A DNA stretch of 49,370 nucleotides from Minisyncoccota bacterium (GCA_035402745.1 DAONDV010000002.1:1-49370), one strand, 5' to 3'. Positions 3,025-15,065 are shown, counted from the stretch's first letter. Made by a program: numbers and translations. The notes: a model not told the origin generated them from the sequence alone.

Positions 3025-3057
3025 AAAAAACCGACTCTATATAAGAGTCGGTTTTTT
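3025..3057. terminator. Bidirectional hairpin terminator between convergent speD and PAP2 genes
   Basis: A6-CCGACTC-loop-GAGTCGG-T6. Confidence 0.7.
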
Positions 3058-3064
3058 AATTTAA

Positions 3065-3640
3065 TTACTTTACTAATTTATTTATCAATTTATTAACCAA
3101 CCACGCAGAAACAATACCAATGATTGCTCCGCCAACTATATCTAAAGGATAATGTACACCGCAAAACACTCTAGCCACTCCCATTATTGCGCTACCGATA
3201 AAAAACAACCAACCCAATTTACGATTGTAACAATAAACCACCATAGATAAAGCGAAAAACAAAGTCATGTGTCCGGAAGGAAAAGAGCCACTATCGGAAT
3301 GATTAATTAAAGCAACAATATCATGGCTCATAAACGGCCTTGAACGATGATAAAAATGCCTAATTGTTTCCGTGACCACTAAACGACTTAATACCAAAGA
3401 AGAAAACAAGAAAATAAAAATCTTTTTCGCTCCATGCCAAAAATTAGCCAATGTTTCAGTGACTTTTTTGATATGCCATAATTCCCACAACAACCAAATA
3501 GCTGCCATAAAAACTAGAATATACCCCAATGTATCAGCCAAGAAAAATCCAAGCTTATCCAAAAACTCGCTTTTTCCTGCCCAATCATTAATACTTTTGA
3601 AAACTGTATAATCAATATTTGATAACATATTCAATATCAT
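3065..3640 (-). CDS. PAP2 family phosphatase (undecaprenyl-diphosphatase-like)
   Basis: Acid phosphatase motifs: RSRPF, PSGH, and SR-like ARVFCGVHYPLD. Several TM helices. Confidence 0.8.
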   Translation of the reverse strand: MILNMLSNIDYTVFKSINDWAGKSEFLDKLGFFLADTLGYILVFMAAIWLLWELWHIKKVTETLANFWHGAKKIFIFLFSSLVLSRLVVTETIRHFYHRSRPFMSHDIVALINHSDSGSFPSGHMTLFFALSMVVYCYNRKLGWLFFIGSAIMGVARVFCGVHYPLDIVGGAIIGIVSAWLVNKLINKLVK

Positions 3641-3727: not shown

Positions 3728-3765
3728 CCCTACGGATAACTTACTATCGTAAGTTATCCGTAGGG
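3728..3765. repeat. Hairpin palindrome copy 1 (CCCTACGGATAACTTAC-TATC-GTAAGTTATCCGTAGGG)
   Basis: Perfect 17-bp arms, 4-nt loop. Same core as the copies at 4377 and 8267, in inverted orientation (loop TATC is the complement of GATA). Confidence 0.95.
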
Positions 3766-3774
3766 AATAAAAAA

Positions 3775-4365
3775 CTACAACAAATCAAAATGCTTCTTTA
3801 ATATCAAATCATGATAATCCCCTAGCGTTAATGAGTATAATAAAATTACAAATTTTTTCACATCAAAAAATTCTCTAATAAAATCAATTTCATTTTCGCA
3901 TTCATACGGAAAAACAAAAACACTTTTTTGCAAACTATAAAACCCTAATTCCTTTAACTTTCGAGACAAAGCAATACGACCATTTCTGAATCTTTCCGGA
4001 ATATCAAAAATCACTATTCTCCATTTACCATCCCACAACTTTGATTTTCTGATTTGCAGCTCATCAATGTCATATCTCAATAATTCTTTTCTTCCTAAAT
4101 CGGTAATTTCCAAAAAATCATTCCCGTTTTTAGTAACAACTCTTATCAATCTTTTCTCTTTGGCTTGTTTTAAAAAATATCTAAATTTTTCATGTTTTTT
4201 ATTTATATTCTGATTTTTTAAAAAATCTTTAATAATCAATGCTGATCCTGGCAACAAAAAAATCATTGGCATCACTACCCCACCGCATAATAACTTTAAA
4301 ACATCTTTCATTGTGGAAGACATTCTAATATTCTTTTTTATTTGTGTTTTTTCCATAATGACCAA
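3775..4365 (-). CDS. PaaX-like / Cas2-fold C-terminal domain protein with winged-helix region and N-terminal hydrophobic segment
   Basis: WDGKWRIVIFDIPERFRNGRIALSRKLKELGFYSLQKSVFVFP matches the PaaX_C / Cas2-like beta-alpha-beta pattern. It is preceded by a wHTH-like KRLIRVV..FLEITDLGRKEL segment. The N-terminal LLCGGVVMPMIFLLPGSALII segment is hydrophobic. Confidence 0.5.
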   Translation of the reverse strand: MVIMEKTQIKKNIRMSSTMKDVLKLLCGGVVMPMIFLLPGSALIIKDFLKNQNINKKHEKFRYFLKQAKEKRLIRVVTKNGNDFLEITDLGRKELLRYDIDELQIRKSKLWDGKWRIVIFDIPERFRNGRIALSRKLKELGFYSLQKSVFVFPYECENEIDFIREFFDVKKFVILLYSLTLGDYHDLILKKHFDLL

Positions 4366-4376
4366 TTTTCAGACTC

Positions 4377-4408
4377 TACGGATAACTTACAATAGTAAGT
4401 TATCCGTA
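4377..4408. repeat. Hairpin palindrome copy 2 (TACGGATAACTTAC-AATA-GTAAGTTATCCGTA)
   Basis: Perfect 14-bp arms. Lies between the stop of the 1039-aa gene (4443) and the start of the PaaX-like gene (4365). Confidence 0.95.
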
Positions 4409-4442
4409 TGATCCTTATAATTGATATCTATTTTTGTTATTT

Positions 4443-7400
4443 CTAAATCACTGGAGAAAATTGAAAATTATCGAAGTAATATTTACTATCTCGAGAGACT
4501 CCGCCACAAGCCGTGATACTGATTTTACCAAGGCCACCAGTAAATTCTCCCCAATTACCACCCCTTTGCCATTCCGTCCATTCATTATCATTAATCTTAA
4601 CCCTCACCCCATTTACCTGACTAAACTCAATTTGAAAATTATACCAACTATCAATCCAAACTCCGGGCACACAAATATACCCACCATATGAATTAACAAA
4701 AGCAGCTTGTTGATAACAATAATTACTTGGATCAGAACCAAAATCGTTTGGTACCATTCCAAATCGCCAGTTATTAATTTCTGGACTATCTTTACTAAAG
4801 AATTTTAAACTAGCCCTGTTTGACCATGATCCTTGAGGCCCCTGAGTACTAGAAGCTTGTAATTTGAAAGAAAAAATCCCATTTCCAGTTAAATCAACCT
4901 GTTTGTTATAAGTGGAACAGCCCGAGGGCGGATATAAAAATTCAAAAAATAAAGATTGATTCCCCTCATAAACAACACCACCGCCGACGCTAAACCTATA
5001 TCCGATAGATTCTTCATTAGCCCAACCATTCTGGCCGTCTAAATTACCATGAGAATAATCTTCAAATCCCTCAAAGAAAATTGCAGCGGCTGGAGATGGT
5101 TCAATAATAATTGGCAATGGAAATTGATAAATATTTGAAATCACTGATCGATATCCATCTCGATCTTGCGCGCAAACAACAAAATAATCCGTACTAGAAG
5201 AAACATCGAGCAGATTCAATTCATATCTATTATTTACACTGTCAAAAATAACTTCAGTTGTACTAGCTATCAACAAATTATTCCAATTAGATTCAATGAT
5301 ATCTGTTGTAGTAGCCGAATATCTGACAACAAAAGATATTTCACTGGTTGTTGCGCTTTCTAAATTAAACAATAAAATTTTATTCGTATCATTTCTAATC
5401 TCCCCTGATAAATTAATAATCTTGGGCGGTTGTTGTCGAGGCTCCGGCAAATCTTCAAAATTTTGTGGCTGCGGATTATTTCTGATAATAAAATTTAATA
5501 AACCATCGGAATCATCAAAACTATTACCGGCATATTGATCTATACCGCTAATCATGGAATCAATAGTGGAATTTAAATTGGCCTTTCTTTCCAAACTTTC
5601 TCCCTCTCCAACAGAGTTAGACACATACGCGATAGAATCGATCAAGCTATTTTCGCCATCCAATAATTGAATTTGATAATTTGTTTCCAATTGCTGCCCT
5701 AATGAAGCAGAACGGGCCACATCCGCAACTTTATTATTATAATTCACAGCATCATAGTTATTTAACCCTACTAATAAGAAACTTTTTGCCATTATTACGG
5801 TTTTATCTTGTTCATTTCTGCCAAAAATAACCAACGATTCCGTAGAAGTAGCTTCATTAATTTTCAAACGCAAAGACCAATTATTTAAATTAACATCATT
5901 ATCCCCGGCATTGTATAACTCTATAAACTCTTTTCCTTCATCAGACCCAACAGCATCATAAACAAATTCTGAAATTAAAATTTGAGGTGTTGGAGTGACG
6001 GTTGGCGTTGGTTCGACGGTAGGGTCTGGAGTAATAGTTGGAGTTGGCTCAGCGCTTGATTCTGGAGTGGGCGTCGGGGTTATTGTAGGCGTTGAAGTAG
6101 AGATTGGCGTCGGAGTCGGAGTAATCGTATTCGTTCCAGCCACTACCCCAGCATAATAACCACCGCCATAACTAATAGGCGTGGGACTCGGCGTTGGAGT
6201 TGGGGTTAAAATTGGAGATGGAATTACGGTGGGAGTTGGAGTCGGAGTTATTATTGGGATCAAGGTCGGACTCAATGTTGCAGATATTTTAGGTGTTACA
6301 GCCGGAGTAAAAGATCCCAACACGCCATGGTCAACCTCTAAAAACACCCCATTTACTTGAGGACTTGGCGTAGAAATTATTATGGGACTAGGCATTAATG
6401 TTACGCTGGGCGAAGCAGAAATTATTGGAATATTTTGATTGTTACTATTAAATAAAATATCTCCAACATTATTTATAAAATTACCGACCGCACCAACAAC
6501 CTTTCCTAAAAAAGTTGTTTTTTGATTACTCAAAAAAGATTGATCATTTTTTAATCTATCAATTTCCTTAAAAAATAAATCAACTAATCCTGCTCCATAA
6601 GAGATTGCTTGTTTAGAAAGATGGGACCAATAGCTATCACGGATTAAAGATGCGTCTAAATTAATATTTGCATTGGAAGAAATTATAACGCTGTTAGATA
6701 ATTTTCTTCTGACCAAAAAATATTCCCCAAGAGCATCACTATTCTTCGCATATATAAAATCTCCAATTTTTTCCGTATTAAGATAATTCCATTCTGGTAG
6801 CTTGTAGTCATTTTGCATTCCAATACTATCAGTACTATAAAAATTATTATTGGAATAAGCTGCCAAACTATCAAAATAATCATCTAAATTAGACAAAATA
6901 AAAGGCGGCTTTAAACCGCTTAGATCAATACTACTCCCAATATTTTTAGCAACATACCCTTCATAAGGATCGCCGGAAATGTGAGGATCATTTCTTGTAT
7001 GAGCCGGTACTGCCATATCTTCCAATAAGTGCAGAACATGACCCAAGCTTTCAAATGCCGCTCGTTTGTCACCAATAATATATTTATAAACCGCTTTATT
7101 CCAAGTATATGTAGTTTGGATATCAATTACATTCTTAGCTAATTTCGCATAAGGATTCAAAGCAGAATTAGCATAAAATTCCCCCAAAAAATTAGCTTGC
7201 GCAAAAGAATTATTAGCCCACTCTTTGGCTGACTTAGAAAATGGAAGCAAAAACCCATAAACTGGGCTAATTATTCCTGTATGAGAAGAATTCAATCCAC
7301 TATTATTCACTGGATCATAAAAATGATTAAGAGTCCTGACTGCCGGCTCATCCTCTCCAATACTACCACCCACAATCGCCTCCATATCATTAACACTAAT

Positions 7401-7562
7401 ATTTTTATTAAAATAATTATTATAATATTTGATTATTTCCCTCGTTAGAGCCGGATGAGTAACTGAATTATCATAAGCTAGAACATTTCGATTGCCACAA
7501 AATAAACCGACAAAAATAATACACATTAATATTATCGGTTTATTTATATTTATTTCAGGCAT
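4443..7562 (-). CDS. Large secreted multidomain protein: zinc phospholipase-C-like domain, Pro/Thr linker, lamin-tail domain, Ig/Fn3-like region, LamG/jelly-roll-like C-terminus
   Basis: N-terminal signal/anchor (IILMCIIFVGLFCG). HFYDP and GHVLHLLEDMAVPAHTRND match His/Asp zinc-ligand spacing of zinc-dependent PLC. PT repeats span aa 383-527. ILISEFVYDAVGSDEGKEFIELYNAG is an LTD signature. The C-terminal 215 aa has GW..G.QSL...DNF features of concanavalin-like lectin folds. Confidence 0.7.
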   Translation of the reverse strand: MPEININKPIILMCIIFVGLFCGNRNVLAYDNSVTHPALTREIIKYYNNYFNKNISVNDMEAIVGGSIGEDEPAVRTLNHFYDPVNNSGLNSSHTGIISPVYGFLLPFSKSAKEWANNSFAQANFLGEFYANSALNPYAKLAKNVIDIQTTYTWNKAVYKYIIGDKRAAFESLGHVLHLLEDMAVPAHTRNDPHISGDPYEGYVAKNIGSSIDLSGLKPPFILSNLDDYFDSLAAYSNNNFYSTDSIGMQNDYKLPEWNYLNTEKIGDFIYAKNSDALGEYFLVRRKLSNSVIISSNANINLDASLIRDSYWSHLSKQAISYGAGLVDLFFKEIDRLKNDQSFLSNQKTTFLGKVVGAVGNFINNVGDILFNSNNQNIPIISASPSVTLMPSPIIISTPSPQVNGVFLEVDHGVLGSFTPAVTPKISATLSPTLIPIITPTPTPTVIPSPILTPTPTPSPTPISYGGGYYAGVVAGTNTITPTPTPISTSTPTITPTPTPESSAEPTPTITPDPTVEPTPTVTPTPQILISEFVYDAVGSDEGKEFIELYNAGDNDVNLNNWSLRLKINEATSTESLVIFGRNEQDKTVIMAKSFLLVGLNNYDAVNYNNKVADVARSASLGQQLETNYQIQLLDGENSLIDSIAYVSNSVGEGESLERKANLNSTIDSMISGIDQYAGNSFDDSDGLLNFIIRNNPQPQNFEDLPEPRQQPPKIINLSGEIRNDTNKILLFNLESATTSEISFVVRYSATTTDIIESNWNNLLIASTTEVIFDSVNNRYELNLLDVSSSTDYFVVCAQDRDGYRSVISNIYQFPLPIIIEPSPAAAIFFEGFEDYSHGNLDGQNGWANEESIGYRFSVGGGVVYEGNQSLFFEFLYPPSGCSTYNKQVDLTGNGIFSFKLQASSTQGPQGSWSNRASLKFFSKDSPEINNWRFGMVPNDFGSDPSNYCYQQAAFVNSYGGYICVPGVWIDSWYNFQIEFSQVNGVRVKINDNEWTEWQRGGNWGEFTGGLGKISITACGGVSRDSKYYFDNFQFSPVI
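5982..6416 (-). repeat. Low-complexity Pro/Thr/Ser linker-coding region inside the 1039-aa gene
   Basis: Encodes TPTPTP / PSPTP / EPTPT runs. Locally GC-richer (GGTGT/GGAGT periodicity on the + strand). Confidence 0.9.
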
Positions 7563-7603
7563 ATTTTAAAATTAATGTTCTTATTAAAAAGGCCTTTTAT
7601 TTT

Positions 7604-8173
7604 TTACATTGATACTATTTTCCAAACTTTAGAATATTCATTCAATCTCATATGCACTATATAGTCAGCCAGACCATTTTCTCCTAAAACAATAAATTCA
7701 TATTCTGTTTCCAAGATAGATTGTTCCGAAGATGCTTCTAGTCTTTTTAATAAACCAATGATTTTAGGAACCTCTCCCTTCATATATGAATCTTTTAAAG
7801 CATCTTCCCATTTTTGCCGGCTTAAATTGTCATCTAAAGCAAAATACTTTCCCGCCAATTCTATATCACCCTTTTCCAAAGCATTAATAAACATATCTAA
7901 AGTCTCCTGCGGCGTTTTTCCTCCATACGTATCCTCTGTTAGGGTTTTGGATATTTTATCCATCATTTCATTGTATCCCTTAATCATTAGAGCGGCATTT
8001 TTTCGATCTTGCCAATTATTATAAACTCCTTTTATTCCATCATATCCGCCAAACAACAAAAAAAGAGCCACTAAAATAATTATTGAAGCAATAATTATCC
8101 AAGCAACTCTACGTTTTTTAGGCTGATTATTTAAATTTCCCGACGAATTATTAAAATTGGCTTGATTTTCCAT
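7604..8173 (-). CDS. Membrane-anchored hypothetical protein (first gene of the surface-protein operon)
   Basis: Single N-terminal TM (AWIIIASIIILVALFLLFGG) after a KKRR stretch, then a globular domain of about 130 aa. 41-nt gap to the 1039-aa gene on the same strand. Confidence 0.6.
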   Translation of the reverse strand: MENQANFNNSSGNLNNQPKKRRVAWIIIASIIILVALFLLFGGYDGIKGVYNNWQDRKNAALMIKGYNEMMDKISKTLTEDTYGGKTPQETLDMFINALEKGDIELAGKYFALDDNLSRQKWEDALKDSYMKGEVPKIIGLLKRLEASSEQSILETEYEFIVLGENGLADYIVHMRLNEYSKVWKIVSM

Positions 8174-8219
8174 TATTATGAAACCTTTTTAAAAAATAAT
8201 TCTGACAATATCTTTTTTA

Positions 8220-8247
8220 ATTATAATTCTTCAGTGAGACCCGTCAA
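8220..8247 (-). promoter_or_regulatory. Sigma70-like promoter for the 7604..8173 / 4443..7562 operon
   Basis: Minus strand TTGACG-16 nt-TATAAT. Located 19 nt downstream of palindrome copy 3. Confidence 0.45.
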
Positions 8248-8266
8248 GTATCACTAGTCACATTTT

Positions 8267-8302
8267 CATACGGATAACTTACGATAGTAAGTTATCCGTA
8301 TG
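8267..8302. repeat. Hairpin palindrome copy 3 (CATACGGATAACTTAC-GATA-GTAAGTTATCCGTATG)
   Basis: Perfect 16-bp arms, 4-nt loop. Confidence 0.95.
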
Positions 8303-8340
8303 ATTTCCGTTTTATATCAATATAGTAAAAAAATAAAAAA

Positions 8341-8590
8341 GCGGAGGGTGAAACCCGCCTACGCACGAAACTTCTGCCTTTGCTAAAGCTTCGGCAGACA
8401 AGTCGGCGGGCAGGAATTCTCAATCACGATAAGGCGGTGGGTATAGGACTTGAACCTATACGCCCCTTTTACGGGGCTCTGCTTTTCGAGAGCAGCGCCT
8501 TACCATTCGGCACAACCCACCATTTTTGACCCCTAACGCCACTTCCGCCCAAGGCGGATCAGTCCTTTGACTGACTGGCAACCCTCCGTT
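8341..8590 (-). ncRNA. GC-rich structured leader and trailer enclosing tRNA-Ser(CGA) (putative single primary transcript)
   Basis: The 5' CGGAGGGU (8588-8581) is the exact complement of the 3' ACCCUCCG (8349-8342). Internal hairpins at 8559-8574, 8545-8557 and nested 8354-8410. Flanked by a promoter and a U-tract. Confidence 0.4.
8435..8521 (-). tRNA. tRNA-Ser (anticodon CGA), class II with long variable arm, no encoded CCA
   Basis: Manual cloverleaf: acceptor GGUGGGU/ACCCACC, anticodon stem CUGCU/AGCAG with loop CU-CGA-AA, variable arm CCCC-GUAAAA-GGGG, T arm AUAGG-UUCAAGU-CCUAU, discriminator G. Confidence 0.9.
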
Positions 8591-8625: not shown

Positions 8626-8661
8626 ACAAAAAATCGCTTCGACGATTTCGTCGAAGCGATT
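8625..8661 (-). terminator. Intrinsic terminator after the beta-CASP gene
   Basis: AATCGCTTCGACGA / TCGTCGAAGCGATT perfect palindrome followed by U6 on the minus strand. Confidence 0.7.
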
Positions 8662-8672
8662 AAAATCATTTC

Positions 8673-10061
8673 TTAATTAGAATCGTCTAATTCAATAATA
8701 GAATCATGATCCGGACTTTCGGTCAATAAACCGAATAAATCACGTATCTTGCTAGATAAGACCTCCCGCGCTTCTGGATCGCCATGAACCACAAAAACCT
8801 TTTTCAAAGTAAAACGCATAGGCTTAATCCACCCCAAAAGCATAGATTGATCGGCATGCGCTGAATAAGCTGATATTTCCTTCACTTTAGCATTTACCGA
8901 AACTTTCTCTCCATAAATATTAACAACCTTTTCTCCATCTACAAGCTTGCGACCCAATGTTCCTGCCATTTGATAACCCACTATTAATAGTATGTTATTG
9001 GGATCGGGTAAATAATTTTTTTCATGATGCAAGATTCTCCCTCCCTGCGAAGAACCAGAACCGGCCATAACTAATTTCGGCGGTAATACCGTAGCAATGG
9101 CTTTGGATTCCTCCGAAGACATAGTAAATTTTAACCCAGGAAAATCAAAGAAATTATCGGAAGCATTACTTACAGACTTAAACGCATCCAAACGGAAATA
9201 AGTAAGATATTTTTGATAAACCTCCGTAAGCTTAATAGCCAAAGGACTATCTATAAAAATAGGAATTTGTTGAATTCGTTTATTCTCCACTAGCTCATTC
9301 AATTCAAATAACAACTCCTGCGTTCTTTCCATAGCAAAAGTCGGAATCATCAAAACTCCCTTATTCATAACCGCCTCTTCTATAGTATCCTCCAAAAGAT
9401 TTTTTCTTTGGTCTAAATTTTCATGCAAACGATTTCCATAAGTTGATTCCACAAAACAATAATCTCCCTCAGAAAGTTCTTCCATCTCCGGTAATAATTG
9501 ATTTTGCGGATTACCCAAATCTCCGGAGAAAATAACTCTGATTTCTTTTTTGGGCGATGTTTTTATTTTTAAAAGAATAATACAAGAACCCAGTACGTGC
9601 CCGGCATTATAAAAAGCAAAGGAAAATTTTGGAGAGATTTCAACTTCTTTATGATATTCAACGGTTTCCCACAGACTCATAGATTTATCAATATCAGCCG
9701 CGGAGTAAAGTTCTTCCTCTCTATTTTTTTCAGCATCATCAGCCAAGAGGCCCTGTGTGTCTCTCAACATCAAATCGGCAAAATCTTTAGTAGGAGGAGT
9801 GGAATAAATTTTTTTAGAAAAACCTCTTTTAGCAAGAAGGGGCAAACGACCAGTATGGTCGATATGCGAATGAGTGATCAAAACAGCTTTTAAATCCGCA
9901 GGATCAAATCTAAATTTGTCATAATTTAATTTTTCGTATTCTTTTCCTTGATAAAGTCCGCAATCAATCAAAATCTGATCGCCCCCGCAATCAACAAGAT
10001 AGCTAGAAGCGCCTACGCCTTTACTTTCGCTCAAACAATATATTTTAGTTTTTGATGCCAT
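8673..10061 (-). CDS. MBL-fold metallo-hydrolase with beta-CASP / RNA-specificity domain (RNase J/CPSF-like nuclease)
   Basis: HSHIDHTGRLP (HxHxDH). Downstream D and H motifs (ESTYG.., AYSAHADQ) are typical of beta-CASP. Confidence 0.8.
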   Translation of the reverse strand: MASKTKIYCLSESKGVGASSYLVDCGGDQILIDCGLYQGKEYEKLNYDKFRFDPADLKAVLITHSHIDHTGRLPLLAKRGFSKKIYSTPPTKDFADLMLRDTQGLLADDAEKNREEELYSAADIDKSMSLWETVEYHKEVEISPKFSFAFYNAGHVLGSCIILLKIKTSPKKEIRVIFSGDLGNPQNQLLPEMEELSEGDYCFVESTYGNRLHENLDQRKNLLEDTIEEAVMNKGVLMIPTFAMERTQELLFELNELVENKRIQQIPIFIDSPLAIKLTEVYQKYLTYFRLDAFKSVSNASDNFFDFPGLKFTMSSEESKAIATVLPPKLVMAGSGSSQGGRILHHEKNYLPDPNNILLIVGYQMAGTLGRKLVDGEKVVNIYGEKVSVNAKVKEISAYSAHADQSMLLGWIKPMRFTLKKVFVVHGDPEAREVLSSKIRDLFGLLTESPDHDSIIELDDSN

Positions 10062-10101
10062 ATTATTATTTTAACAAAAAATTGCGATTAAAACAAAATT
10101 T

Positions 10102-11313
10102 TTATTTATTCTCAAAAATGGAAACCTTACCATATTCACCGTCATAACCAGGCTGAATGCTAATATTTCCATTACGCACCCTATCAATAGCATCGGCCAA
10201 CTCATTAAAACCATGGGATTTGATTTCTTCTATGGGCACATCTATTAAAATTGCCAATTCTGTGCCGAAAACATCAATTAAACGCTCATATTCAGCTTTC
10301 ACTTTTTTAGTAATGGAAGCAACGCCAAAAATTTCTTTAATAATTTCCGATAAAGGAACTATCTTTTTAAAAGGCACACGAGTTTTAGAAACAAAATTAT
10401 TAGGTCGATCCGCCAACTCATTGACTCTATACATAACCCCCACAGTCAAAGGCTTGCCGCATTGCGGACAAATTTTGTTTTTTTTCTTAGTTTCTTCCGG
10501 AGGCAATACTATCCCACACAAACGATGTCCGTCATAATGATATTTTCCTTCTTCAGGGAAAAATTCAATGGTATATAAAAACTTTTTTAAATCACGACTT
10601 TTAATCGCGTCAACAATACCGGCAAAAGAAAGTTCCGTATCAAAGACATTAGCCTCTCTGCCAATTTTTTCCGCGGAATGGGAATCAGAATTAGAAATTA
10701 AAGAAATATTATCCAATTTAGATAGACGCCAATTCATAGCCGGATCAGATGACAAACCGGTTTCAATGGCAAAAATTTTATCGGAATATTCTCCAAAGCA
10801 TTCTTCAATCGTATCAAAACCGGACATAGAACCAAAAACCGAAAACCATGGAGTCCAAGCATGCGCCGGAATAATTACCGCTTCTTCGGAAATGCCAAAA
10901 ACCAATTTTGCCAAATCCATAGAAGAAATTCCCAAAATCGGACGACCGTCTGATTTGATATTCCCCTGCCAACTCAATGCGATATTTATTTTTTCTGCCA
11001 CCTCCATACTAGGCGCTAAAATCAAATTATGAACACGTCGAGTTTTCCCACCTTGAGAATAGATACTGGAAATTTCTACGGACAATAAAAAACGAGTACC
11101 CGTTTCACTACCCTTTAATTTATATAATCCCGGTTCAGCTGCTTCTAATTTATTTTTAATTTCTTGAAACCAAGCCGGATGCGTAAAATCACCGGTAGCC
11201 ATTACTTTAATGCCCTTAATTTTCGCCCACTTATCCAAAGATTCCAAATTCATTTCTTTGGAAGTGGCGCGCGAATATTTAGAATGAATATGCAAATCGG
11301 CAACAAACTTCAT
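10102..11313 (-). CDS. PHP-domain endonuclease Q-like protein
   Basis: N-terminal ADLHIHSKYSRATS PHP metal site and a C-terminal CPQCGKPLTVGVMYRV zinc-finger block, as in the EndoQ/TIGR00375 family. Confidence 0.65.
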   Translation of the reverse strand: MKFVADLHIHSKYSRATSKEMNLESLDKWAKIKGIKVMATGDFTHPAWFQEIKNKLEAAEPGLYKLKGSETGTRFLLSVEISSIYSQGGKTRRVHNLILAPSMEVAEKINIALSWQGNIKSDGRPILGISSMDLAKLVFGISEEAVIIPAHAWTPWFSVFGSMSGFDTIEECFGEYSDKIFAIETGLSSDPAMNWRLSKLDNISLISNSDSHSAEKIGREANVFDTELSFAGIVDAIKSRDLKKFLYTIEFFPEEGKYHYDGHRLCGIVLPPEETKKKNKICPQCGKPLTVGVMYRVNELADRPNNFVSKTRVPFKKIVPLSEIIKEIFGVASITKKVKAEYERLIDVFGTELAILIDVPIEEIKSHGFNELADAIDRVRNGNISIQPGYDGEYGKVSIFENK

Positions 11314-15025: not shown

Positions 15026-15065
15026 AAAAATCGCTTCAATGCATTACCTGCATCGAAGCGATTTT
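15024..15065. terminator. Bidirectional hairpin terminator after cysS
   Basis: A-run, AATCGCTTCAATGCA / TGCATCGAAGCGATT stem, T-run. Confidence 0.65.

Follow-up and report, generated by a model that had tools for sequence, protein, structure and literature searches.

Background

PaaX is the phenylacetyl-CoA-responsive repressor of Escherichia coli and Pseudomonas (Protein Data Bank (PDB) entries 8a39 and 3l09). A different pairing of a protein with extragenic palindromes is found in the RAYT (TnpA-REP) genes, which are flanked by repetitive extragenic palindromes (REPs), and REP copies number from tens to hundreds. Genomes of the Patescibacteria, or candidate phyla radiation (CPR), are tiny and encode few regulators that can be recognised, and to our knowledge almost no cis-elements have been experimentally defined in them. 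The operator of E. coli PaaX was described as TGATTC-N27-GAATCA, a 39-bp dyad with distal half-sites; the protein represses its own promoter, and its central domain was described as a dimerisation motif (PMC9493321). The locus analysed here lies in a stretch of 49,370 nucleotides from a Minisyncoccota bacterium (GCA_035402745.1, DAONDV010000002.1:1-49370), referred to as the window at its full length. It carries three copies of a palindrome around a gene for a minimal PaaX-type protein and an adjacent operon for a giant surface protein. An earlier inspection, termed the sequence-only reading, had pointed out the three copies and proposed operator or RNA-hairpin sites, a REP-like element or the boundaries of an island as their meaning. 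Comparison with related loci, designated by L numbers, revealed that every family gene compared is bracketed in this way, by a palindromic element that differs from lineage to lineage.

Palindromes bracketing PaaX-like genes

In the whole 49 kb, the 14-nt arm TACGGATAACTTAC has six matches, which pair as three palindromes (3731-3762, 4377-4408 and 8269-8300), each with the core architecture TACGGATAACTTAC-N4-GTAAGTTATCCGTA. Shuffled sequences gave an expectation of 0.18 matches, none of 100 shuffles reached six, and no match at a fourth site was found in the 49 kb with two mismatches tolerated. This confirmed the earlier claim of a core present at three places and absent elsewhere in the window, and the loops TATC, AATA and GATA had likewise been read correctly. 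Copy 1 (3728-3765, 17-bp arms, loop TATC) lies 10 nt 3' of the stop codon of the PaaX-like gene and about 90 nt 5' of a PAP2 gene. Copy 2 (4377-4408, 14-bp arms, loop AATA) is located 35 nt past the stop codon of a gene for a 1039-aa protein and 11-20 nt ahead of the PaaX-like start codon, depending on the start chosen. Copy 3 (8266-8303, 17-bp arms, loop GATA) lies 19 nt 5' of the -35 box of the predicted operon promoter, a distance that had also been noted before, and is centred at about -71.5 from the transcription start predicted there; its arms had previously been given as 16 bp at 8267-8302 and are corrected here. The spacings between the repeats are 646 and 3892 nt. Single-strand folding of the three copies gave energies from -13.6 to -18.9 kcal/mol (z-scores from -9.5 to -11), and an Rfam search on the palindromes returned only a spurious sub-threshold microRNA match.

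Two further statements of the sequence-only reading had to be modified. Copy 1 had been described as inverted relative to copies 2 and 3, which is not robust, as the element is a near-perfect palindrome, the flanking TCA...TGA itself lies within the dyad and the loop asymmetry amounts to the two outer loop bases only. A consistent orientation of the copies was considered and rejected: between the window and L014, an 88%-identical relative, the loops differ at two of the three orthologous sites and only the loop of copy 3 is kept, and the upstream and downstream copies form direct repeats in certain lineages and inverted repeats in others. The absence of T-tracts, from which it had been concluded that the copies are not ordinary intrinsic terminators, holds for copy 2, whereas a loose terminator scan reported a T-rich tail behind copy 1 on the minus strand and behind copy 3 on the plus strand. 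These tails are unlike the real terminators of this genome, which are GC-rich stems flanked by A- and T-tracts (e.g. 3025-3057).

The neighbourhoods of homologues with 38-98% identity were compared, comprising 14 PaaX_M genes from 12 genomes (13 genes besides that of the window). In all 14 cases, the gene lies between two dyad-symmetric elements, one upstream at 7-110 nt from the start codon and one downstream at -2 to +80 nt from the stop codon. The elements are 27-50 bp long, and their sequence is different in each lineage: GTCCACATCCTCAACTATAGTTGAGGATGTGGAC in L023, AAAGTC..TTATATTTTACTATAGTAAAATATAA..GACTTT in L026, AATTATACGATTCAATACTATAGTATTAAATCGTATAATT in L027, TTATCACATGAGCGCGCGGTCGCGCGCTCATGTGATAA in L031 and TTAAGCTCTGTAAAATATTCACGATCGTGAATATTTTACAGAGCTTAA in L034. 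L033 carries two perfect palindromes (48 and 40 bp) that differ from each other and have their centre in common, and the dyads of L030, L036, L038 and L039 are imperfect. The 170 kb of family loci contain 40 long palindromes, 14 of which lie in the 1.3% of sequence that adjoins family genes (binomial P = 5e-17). When upstream and downstream flanks were compared with each other, 11 of 13 family genes had a similarity above the 95th percentile of 194 control genes (Mann-Whitney P = 1.5e-7). Paralogues lying within about 5 kb of each other (10001-10582 and 15334-15879 in L030; 10001-10552 and 15477-16022 in L036) each have a different dyad of their own.

Positions around the neighbouring operon were found to be kept as well. 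In L026, where the PaaX-like protein is 59% identical, the elements occupy the same three positions as in the window; the element ahead of the operon is centred at about -72.5, 36.5 nt 5' of the -35 box of a promoter TTGACA-18-TATAAT as against 37.5 nt in the window, and differs from the window element in sequence and length. L034 has four copies of its element, which bracket the PaaX_M gene and the adjacent operon for a lamin-tail domain (LTD) protein alike. A TATAGT in the centre of the element was considered as a -10 box; it is plausible in the window clade and not general, because the centres in L031, L033 and L034 are CG-rich or otherwise different.

Further long perfect palindromes with unrelated arms and an RC-N4-GY-type centre were seen in L026 (4080-4121) and L031 (9112-9155 and 17379-17428), none of them beside a PaaX_M gene in the stretch retrieved. 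They may be sites of other family paralogues elsewhere in those genomes.

A full-text literature search retrieved no paper tying PaaX-like or Cas2-like proteins of Patescibacteria to flanking palindromes. The family-wide bracketing of these genes by their own hairpin-capable, co-evolving dyads is apparently the part of the finding that has not been described.

The PaaX-like protein and its family

The PaaX-like gene (3775-4365, minus strand) encodes 193 aa from the ATG at 4356, as in database gene calls, or 196 aa from a TTG at 4365. The protein matches Pfam PF20803 (PaaX_M, 'PaaX central Cas2-like domain') with E = 4.5e-19 and 68.8 bits against a cut-off of 24, as do 40 of 40 homologues. An AlphaFold2 model built from 40 homologues (mean predicted local distance difference test score 89.6) consists of a winged helix at about residues 14-98 (three helices and a wing) and a Cas2-like ferredoxin domain at about residues 107-189, within which the beta-alpha-beta-beta-alpha-beta fold covers residues 112-189. 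Foldseek against the PDB ranked E. coli PaaX (8a39) first, with E = 1.6e-5 over 187 aligned columns, followed by Rv0674, then winged helices of the MarR/PadR/RosR type and then Cas2. An N-terminal hydrophobic stretch had been considered as a membrane anchor; this was rejected, as it is modelled as helices of the winged-helix domain.

Sequence comparisons place the protein at a distance from canonical PaaX. It has no sequence match to the N-terminal domain PF07848 and none to the PaaX C-terminal domain PF08223, and it stops at residue 193. The PaaX equivalog TIGR02277 scores 21.5 bits against a cut-off of 264.55, and an hhalign alignment to E. coli PaaX covers only residues 53-148 of 316. Because the fold matches that of E. 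coli PaaX and the protein ends at residue 193, it is a truncated PaaX that consists of a winged helix and a Cas2-like domain and is devoid of the C-terminal effector (ligand) domain.

The relation to Cas2 was apparent at several levels. Two Cas2 models were matched below threshold (PF09827, 18.3 versus 23.8 bits; TIGR01573, 20.6 versus 24.5 bits), 33 of 40 family members match Cas2 models weakly, defence-system models returned weak Cas2 matches and nothing else, and the sole match of a PDB sequence search was a weak one to the Cas2 structure 3exc (E = 0.08). The family alignment contains an invariant WRxVIFDIPE with the Cas2-type Asp in strand beta1 and a QKSVF (QxSVF) motif; E. coli PaaX reads WLLLLSEGLD at the first position, with Ser-Glu where the family has the Asp of FDIP. 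PaaX_M and the winged helix are the only domains detected, with no HUH/Y1 (Y1_Tnp) domain among them. The window contains neither cas1 nor another cas gene nor a repeat array, and paa catabolic genes were absent from the window and from every homologous locus examined.

One search returned 913 family matches at E <= 1e-3. Those named by organism belong to Patescibacteria (Paceibacteria, Minisyncoccales, Jorgensen-, Wildermuth-, Vogel-, Gottesman- and Staskawiczbacteria), and among these named matches the family appears to be confined to that group. A scan of IMG/VR for further family loci yielded a single truncated homologue.

Dispersed sites and conservation of the motif

Further sites were sought by exact-match scans of fragmentary assemblies, so that all copy numbers given for the motif are lower bounds. 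The motif was found in 14 stretches of JGI metagenome contigs and, among GTDB representative genomes, in four contigs, all of one metagenome-assembled genome (MAG), CAZRVJ01. After overlapping contigs had been merged, at least seven loci of the same population remained beyond the three of the window. Four of these lie between convergent genes, namely recG and recA (L005), comF and ftsQ (L011), a gene for a 287-aa secreted protein and HU (L013, L015-L017 and L022), and topA and a gene for an 85-aa protein (L021). The other three separate co-directional genes, namely infB from queA (L006, L010, L018 and L019), ftsX from tRNA-Gln (L007 and L009) and a DJ-1-like gene from the next gene (L009, L012 and L020). 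All seven are thus intergenic and none is divergent; every motif site touches at least one gene 3' end, and none of the stretches carrying these loci encodes a PaaX homologue. The search for the 14-nt arm that had been proposed earlier ended with about ten known sites in these assemblies, not hundreds, and three of these are packed within 4.6 kb around the PaaX-like gene.

Nearly all dispersed sites adjoin an ordinary terminator with A-tract, GC stem and T-tract, and the HU site lies between two of them. Because ordinary terminators sit beside nearly all sites, the palindromes are not the terminators of this genome. A strong sigma-70 promoter follows only at the operon site and at the site after the DJ-1-like gene (L009 and L012).

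Two observations concern single contigs. In L021, a canonical copy (4446-4469) is followed 45 nt on by a diverged second palindrome, CACACAGATAATTTACTATCGTAAGTTATCTG...CTGTGTG (about 4515-4560), between topA and the convergent 85-aa gene, which is the only tandem arrangement in this species. The contig L020 (CAZRVJ010000009.1) starts 11 nt ahead of a palindrome copy (positions 1-46), which suggests that the repeats break short-read assemblies, and the numbers of copies counted in MAGs are probably too low.

The arms are strictly conserved between strains. In seven orthologous site pairs with 28 arm positions each, 196 of 196 positions are identical, compared with 71% identity in the loops and 78% in the flanking intergenic DNA. 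As the sites had been found by exact match, the arm figure carries an ascertainment bias; in a subset free of it, the two of three window/L014 pairs that were not needed to retrieve L014, 56 of 56 positions are identical, and identity is also complete at the six arm positions of each site that were not fixed by the search pattern. These comparisons indicate that the arms are under purifying selection.

Differences between copies within one genome are compensated in both arms. The upstream and downstream copies of L034 differ by two changes per arm, the copies of L026 by TG/CA versus AT/AT, and the outer arms in the window species read CATAC..GTATG, CCTAC..GTAGG or CCCTC..GAGGG. In the lineages with imperfect dyads, symmetry is strongest in the outer 4-10 bp and often in the centre, and the stretch in between is less symmetric; element centres mostly fit RC-N4-GY. 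The outer symmetry is the pattern that would be expected for distal half-sites. The perfect symmetry of whole elements in the window clade and the compensated differences suggest that formation of a hairpin or cruciform also matters.

Proposed operators of a minimal PaaX-type dimer

Because 13 other family members are bracketed as well, each by a different palindrome, the PaaX-like protein most likely binds the palindromes as its own sites. With moderate confidence, they are interpreted as cognate operators, that is, DNA sites, of a minimal PaaX-type dimer. This is the best supported interpretation because the size of the elements matches that of the E. coli operator, the outer positions are the most symmetric, and the protein has the winged helix and the central domain of PaaX. 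Of the proposal in the sequence-only reading that the copies are operator or RNA-hairpin sites, the operator form is thus the one favoured by the comparative evidence (bracketing, fold, length and position in L026), and the RNA-hairpin form was weakened because several sites lie beyond terminators.

In the proposed mechanism, the two winged helices of a dimer would be placed about three helical turns apart and read the outer parts of the 32-38-bp dyad, as in E. coli PaaX. Sites on either side of the protein's own gene would allow autoregulation, with copy 2 located directly ahead of the start codon, and a loop between the two bracketing sites may let them cooperate. Copy 3, at about -71.5 of the promoter of the operon for the 189-aa and LTD proteins, would couple the surface-protein operon to the regulator, and its conserved phasing with that promoter looks regulatory; copy 1 lies ahead of the PAP2 gene. 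The approximately seven further genomic sites would then form a small set of additional targets. Binding, dimerisation and the sign of regulation, positive or negative, are all inferred.

Several observations weigh against this interpretation. Four of the seven dispersed sites lie between convergent genes, and most of the seven are found beside or between canonical terminators, where an operator of a promoter has no obvious target, and most dispersed sites are not followed by a strong sigma-70 consensus promoter. The genes adjoining the sites (queA, tRNA-Gln, a GIY-YIG gene, PAP2 and the LTD operon) have no common theme. Moreover, a dimer that reads distal half-sites does not account for perfect symmetry over 32-50 bp in several lineages, leaves the compensated copy differences in L034, L026 and the outer arms of the window species unexplained, and offers no obvious explanation of why a downstream copy is present almost everywhere. 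The downstream copy, the sites at convergent genes and terminators and the compensated symmetry keep readings alive in which a hairpin or cruciform is what counts, either in the manner of REP/RAYT or as an architectural element, and the retained Cas2-type Asp adds some weight to them.

Alternative explanations

The alternative that survives best, although it is considered rather unlikely, is a REP/RAYT-like system. The palindromes would act as single-stranded DNA or RNA hairpins or as cruciforms, and the protein with its winged helix and Cas2-like domain would be a cognate structure-specific binder or cleaver that maintains the element or spreads it into gene-end spacers, the flanked gene being the 'master' unit. 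It would fit the flanking on both sides of 14 of 14 genes, the at least seven further extragenic loci with their bias to gene 3' ends (four convergent, none divergent), the lineage-specific elements, which are also typical of REP/RAYT pairs, and the diverged tandem copy in L021. The perfect palindromes, compensatory copy changes, site-specific symmetric arm extensions and very stable hairpins are in line with it, as are the invariant Asp of FDIP and the weak Cas2 matches of 33 of 40 members. However, the protein has no HUH/Y1 domain, and only about ten copies, not tens to hundreds, were found in the fragmentary assemblies scanned. Strains of 84-90% identity retain every site at the orthologous position and show no presence/absence polymorphism, and the gene is syntenic across relatives of 59-65% protein identity. 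A hairpin is not a universal requirement because the middle of the element is not self-complementary in several lineages, and the symmetric central tetranucleotides (TATA, GATC and GTAC) are needless for a hairpin. Of the earlier suggestion of a REP-like element, the flanked-gene layout and the dispersal to at least seven further intergenic loci are real; the low copy number in the assemblies scanned, the strain-stable sites and the lack of an HUH/Y1 domain speak against the remainder.

A related and unlikely possibility is an unrecognised Patescibacterial repeat/protein system built on a Cas2-fold protein. Such a protein would recognise and possibly nick the hairpin or cruciform via its Asp, keep the arms symmetric and seed copies at gene ends, and transcriptional control would be secondary.

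An architectural or roadblock function is quite unlikely. The protein would then be a nucleoid-organising or insulating factor that occupies about ten palindromes at transcription-unit borders, among them those of its own gene, and blocks read-through or structures the chromosome. The low copy number, the strictly conserved arms and the intergenic position of every site at a transcription-unit boundary, often by terminators or between convergent genes, would be compatible with this, as would the bracketing of whole units (both the PaaX gene and the LTD operon) in L034 and the window. On the other hand, the protein is not homologous to any known partition or architectural protein and matches transcription factors best, the count of about ten sites comes from fragmentary data, and the conserved promoter phasing has the appearance of regulation.

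That the hairpins are merely abundant here as transcript-end structures independent of the protein, such as terminators without T-tracts, mRNA stabilisers or RNase III sites, is very unlikely. The hairpins are stable, every site is next to at least one gene 3' end, and copies 1 and 3 were flagged in the loose terminator scan; but canonical terminators lie beside most sites, with one site between two of them, and copy 3 comes after a canonical terminator and before a promoter. The specific, co-varying association with PaaX_M genes throughout the family (P = 5e-17) would be left unexplained, the 14-nt arms are invariant in sequence beyond what mere pairing demands, and the dyads of several lineages are unable to form a continuous stem.

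The boundaries of a tRNA-adjacent genomic island, as which copies 1 and 3 had also been proposed since the block adjoins tRNA-Ser(cga), are an extremely improbable explanation, because gene order including this tRNA is conserved in L026 with its 59%-identical protein and also in L014, neither an integrase (among the window open reading frames (ORFs)) nor a tRNA-derived direct repeat was found, and contigs sharing one side of a palindrome stay collinear beyond it, with no rearrangement starting there. Recombination junctions or cassette boundaries in general were rejected as well: L007 and L009, and likewise L012 and L009, stay collinear for 60-140 nt beyond the palindrome, so the rearrangement breaks do not lie at the element.

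Gene order and other features of the locus

Every gene of the block lies on the minus strand. Read 5' to 3' along that strand, tRNA-Ser(cga) comes first, followed by a GC-rich segment of about 95 nt, a terminator, copy 3, the promoter, the 189-aa gene and the 1039-aa LTD gene; then come copy 2, the PaaX-like gene and copy 1, and finally the PAP2 gene and a bidirectional terminator. ORF and tRNA calls agreed with the layout and the adjoining tRNA-Ser(CGA) as first described. The tRNA-Ser(cga) gene (8433-8521, minus strand) is a neighbour kept in L014 and L026, and its unit is closed ahead of copy 3 by a canonical terminator with a GC-rich stem and a T-tract (8339-8360, minus strand). The predicted sigma-70-type operon promoter (8220-8247, minus strand; TTGACG-16-TATAAT) has 11 of 12 matches, the best of the region. 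The first gene of the operon (7604-8173, minus strand) encodes a 189-aa protein with an N-terminal hydrophobic helix and has an orthologous 189-aa gene at the same position in L026. It is followed by the gene for the 1039-aa predicted secreted protein (4443-7562, minus strand), with the LTD at residues 523-647. Downstream of copy 1, the gene for a PAP2-family phosphatase (3065-3640, minus strand) is a conserved neighbour, and the canonical bidirectional terminator at 3025-3057 (A-tract, GC stem and T-tract) served as the model of ordinary terminators in this genome.

A comparison of synteny, which had been put forward as a check, found the order of the block at 3728-8302 conserved in L014 and L026. 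In L026, the conserved order runs from beta-CASP and tRNA-Ser(cga) through the 189-aa, LTD, PaaX and PAP2 genes to AdoMetDC, HSP20, PrsW and ValRS; in L014, synteny includes tRNA-Ser(cga) also.

A giant LTD gene is linked to the PaaX_M gene in four lineages, namely the window (4443-7562), L023 (81-1823), L026 (4887-7988) and L034 (11486-14746); three of these lineages have it upstream of that gene and one has it downstream. Dyad elements lie at either end of the LTD operon in the window, L026 and L034. Within its N-terminal third, the 1039-aa protein contains a motif H...GHVLHLLEDMAVPAHTRND, and Pfam finds the LTD only; presumably, this motif resembles the metal-binding motifs of zinc phospholipase C and P1 nuclease.

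Two other structured elements were noticed. Between the 3' end of tRNA-Ser(cga) and the terminator at 8339-8360, the GC-rich segment of about 95 nt (8340-8432, minus strand) folds with -32.8 kcal/mol (z = -2.8) and matched no Rfam family; possibly, it is a small RNA that shares a transcript with the tRNA. A second repeated hairpin family, of terminator type and distinct from the palindrome studied here, shares the outer stem AATCGCTTCGA...TCGAAGCGATT and occurs at 8632-8661 and 15027-15065 of the window and at 81-110 of L014.

Significance

Inspection of a genome is enough to match a protein of this large uncharacterised family (913 matches) to its cognate element, which would offer a way to read regulons in uncultured organisms. 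The arrangement also suggests how the operon for a giant LTD surface protein might be controlled. Giant LTD surface proteins are candidates for host attachment in these episymbionts. A stripped-down PaaX, with a winged helix-turn-helix and a Cas2-like core, further bears on the architecture of PaaX and on its relationship to the Cas2 fold, and if a hairpin proved to be what the protein recognises, it would represent a new kind of repeat-associated protein.

Comparison with known systems

PaaX is the best structural match. In both PaaX and the window protein, the Cas2-like central domain (PF20803) comes after a winged helix at the N-terminus. The PaaX operator is dyad-symmetric over about 39 bp with distal half-sites; the elements of the family share the dyad symmetry, and their outer positions are the most symmetric. 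The two differ in that PaaX has 316 aa compared with 193, a C-terminal effector domain and associated paa genes, none of which is found at the window locus, and in that E. coli PaaX has Ser-Glu in place of the Cas2-type Asp of FDIP. The window sites in turn are unlike the PaaX operator in being perfect hairpin-capable palindromes, in lying on both sides of the gene and in being dispersed at gene ends.

As in the window, REP/RAYT systems have extragenic palindromes that are specific to a species, one copy on each side of the cognate gene and other copies located mostly at gene 3' ends or between convergent genes. They are distinguished from it by the HUH/Y1 transposase, which the window system lacks, by the number of copies, of which about ten were found here in fragmentary assemblies, and by the stability of the window-type sites between strains; clustered BIME-like arrays (bacterial interspersed mosaic elements) do not occur in the window system, one tandem pair excepted.

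To Cas2 and CRISPR, the likeness lies in the ferredoxin-like Cas2 fold, the Asp in beta1, the QxSVF motif and the partly palindromic repeats of about 32-38 bp. The window protein, however, is below the Cas2 gathering thresholds and fused to a winged helix, and its locus has no cas1 or other cas gene and no array.

The ParB/parS and KorB/OB systems have an unrelated fold, the window sites are much longer, and the window system has no partner ATPase; MatP/matS is what we take to be a further comparison should the palindromes have an architectural role. What ParB/parS and KorB/OB nevertheless have in common with the window is a helix-turn-helix protein acting as a dimer, as would be predicted for the window protein too, and about ten palindromic sites, some of them beside the protein's own gene.

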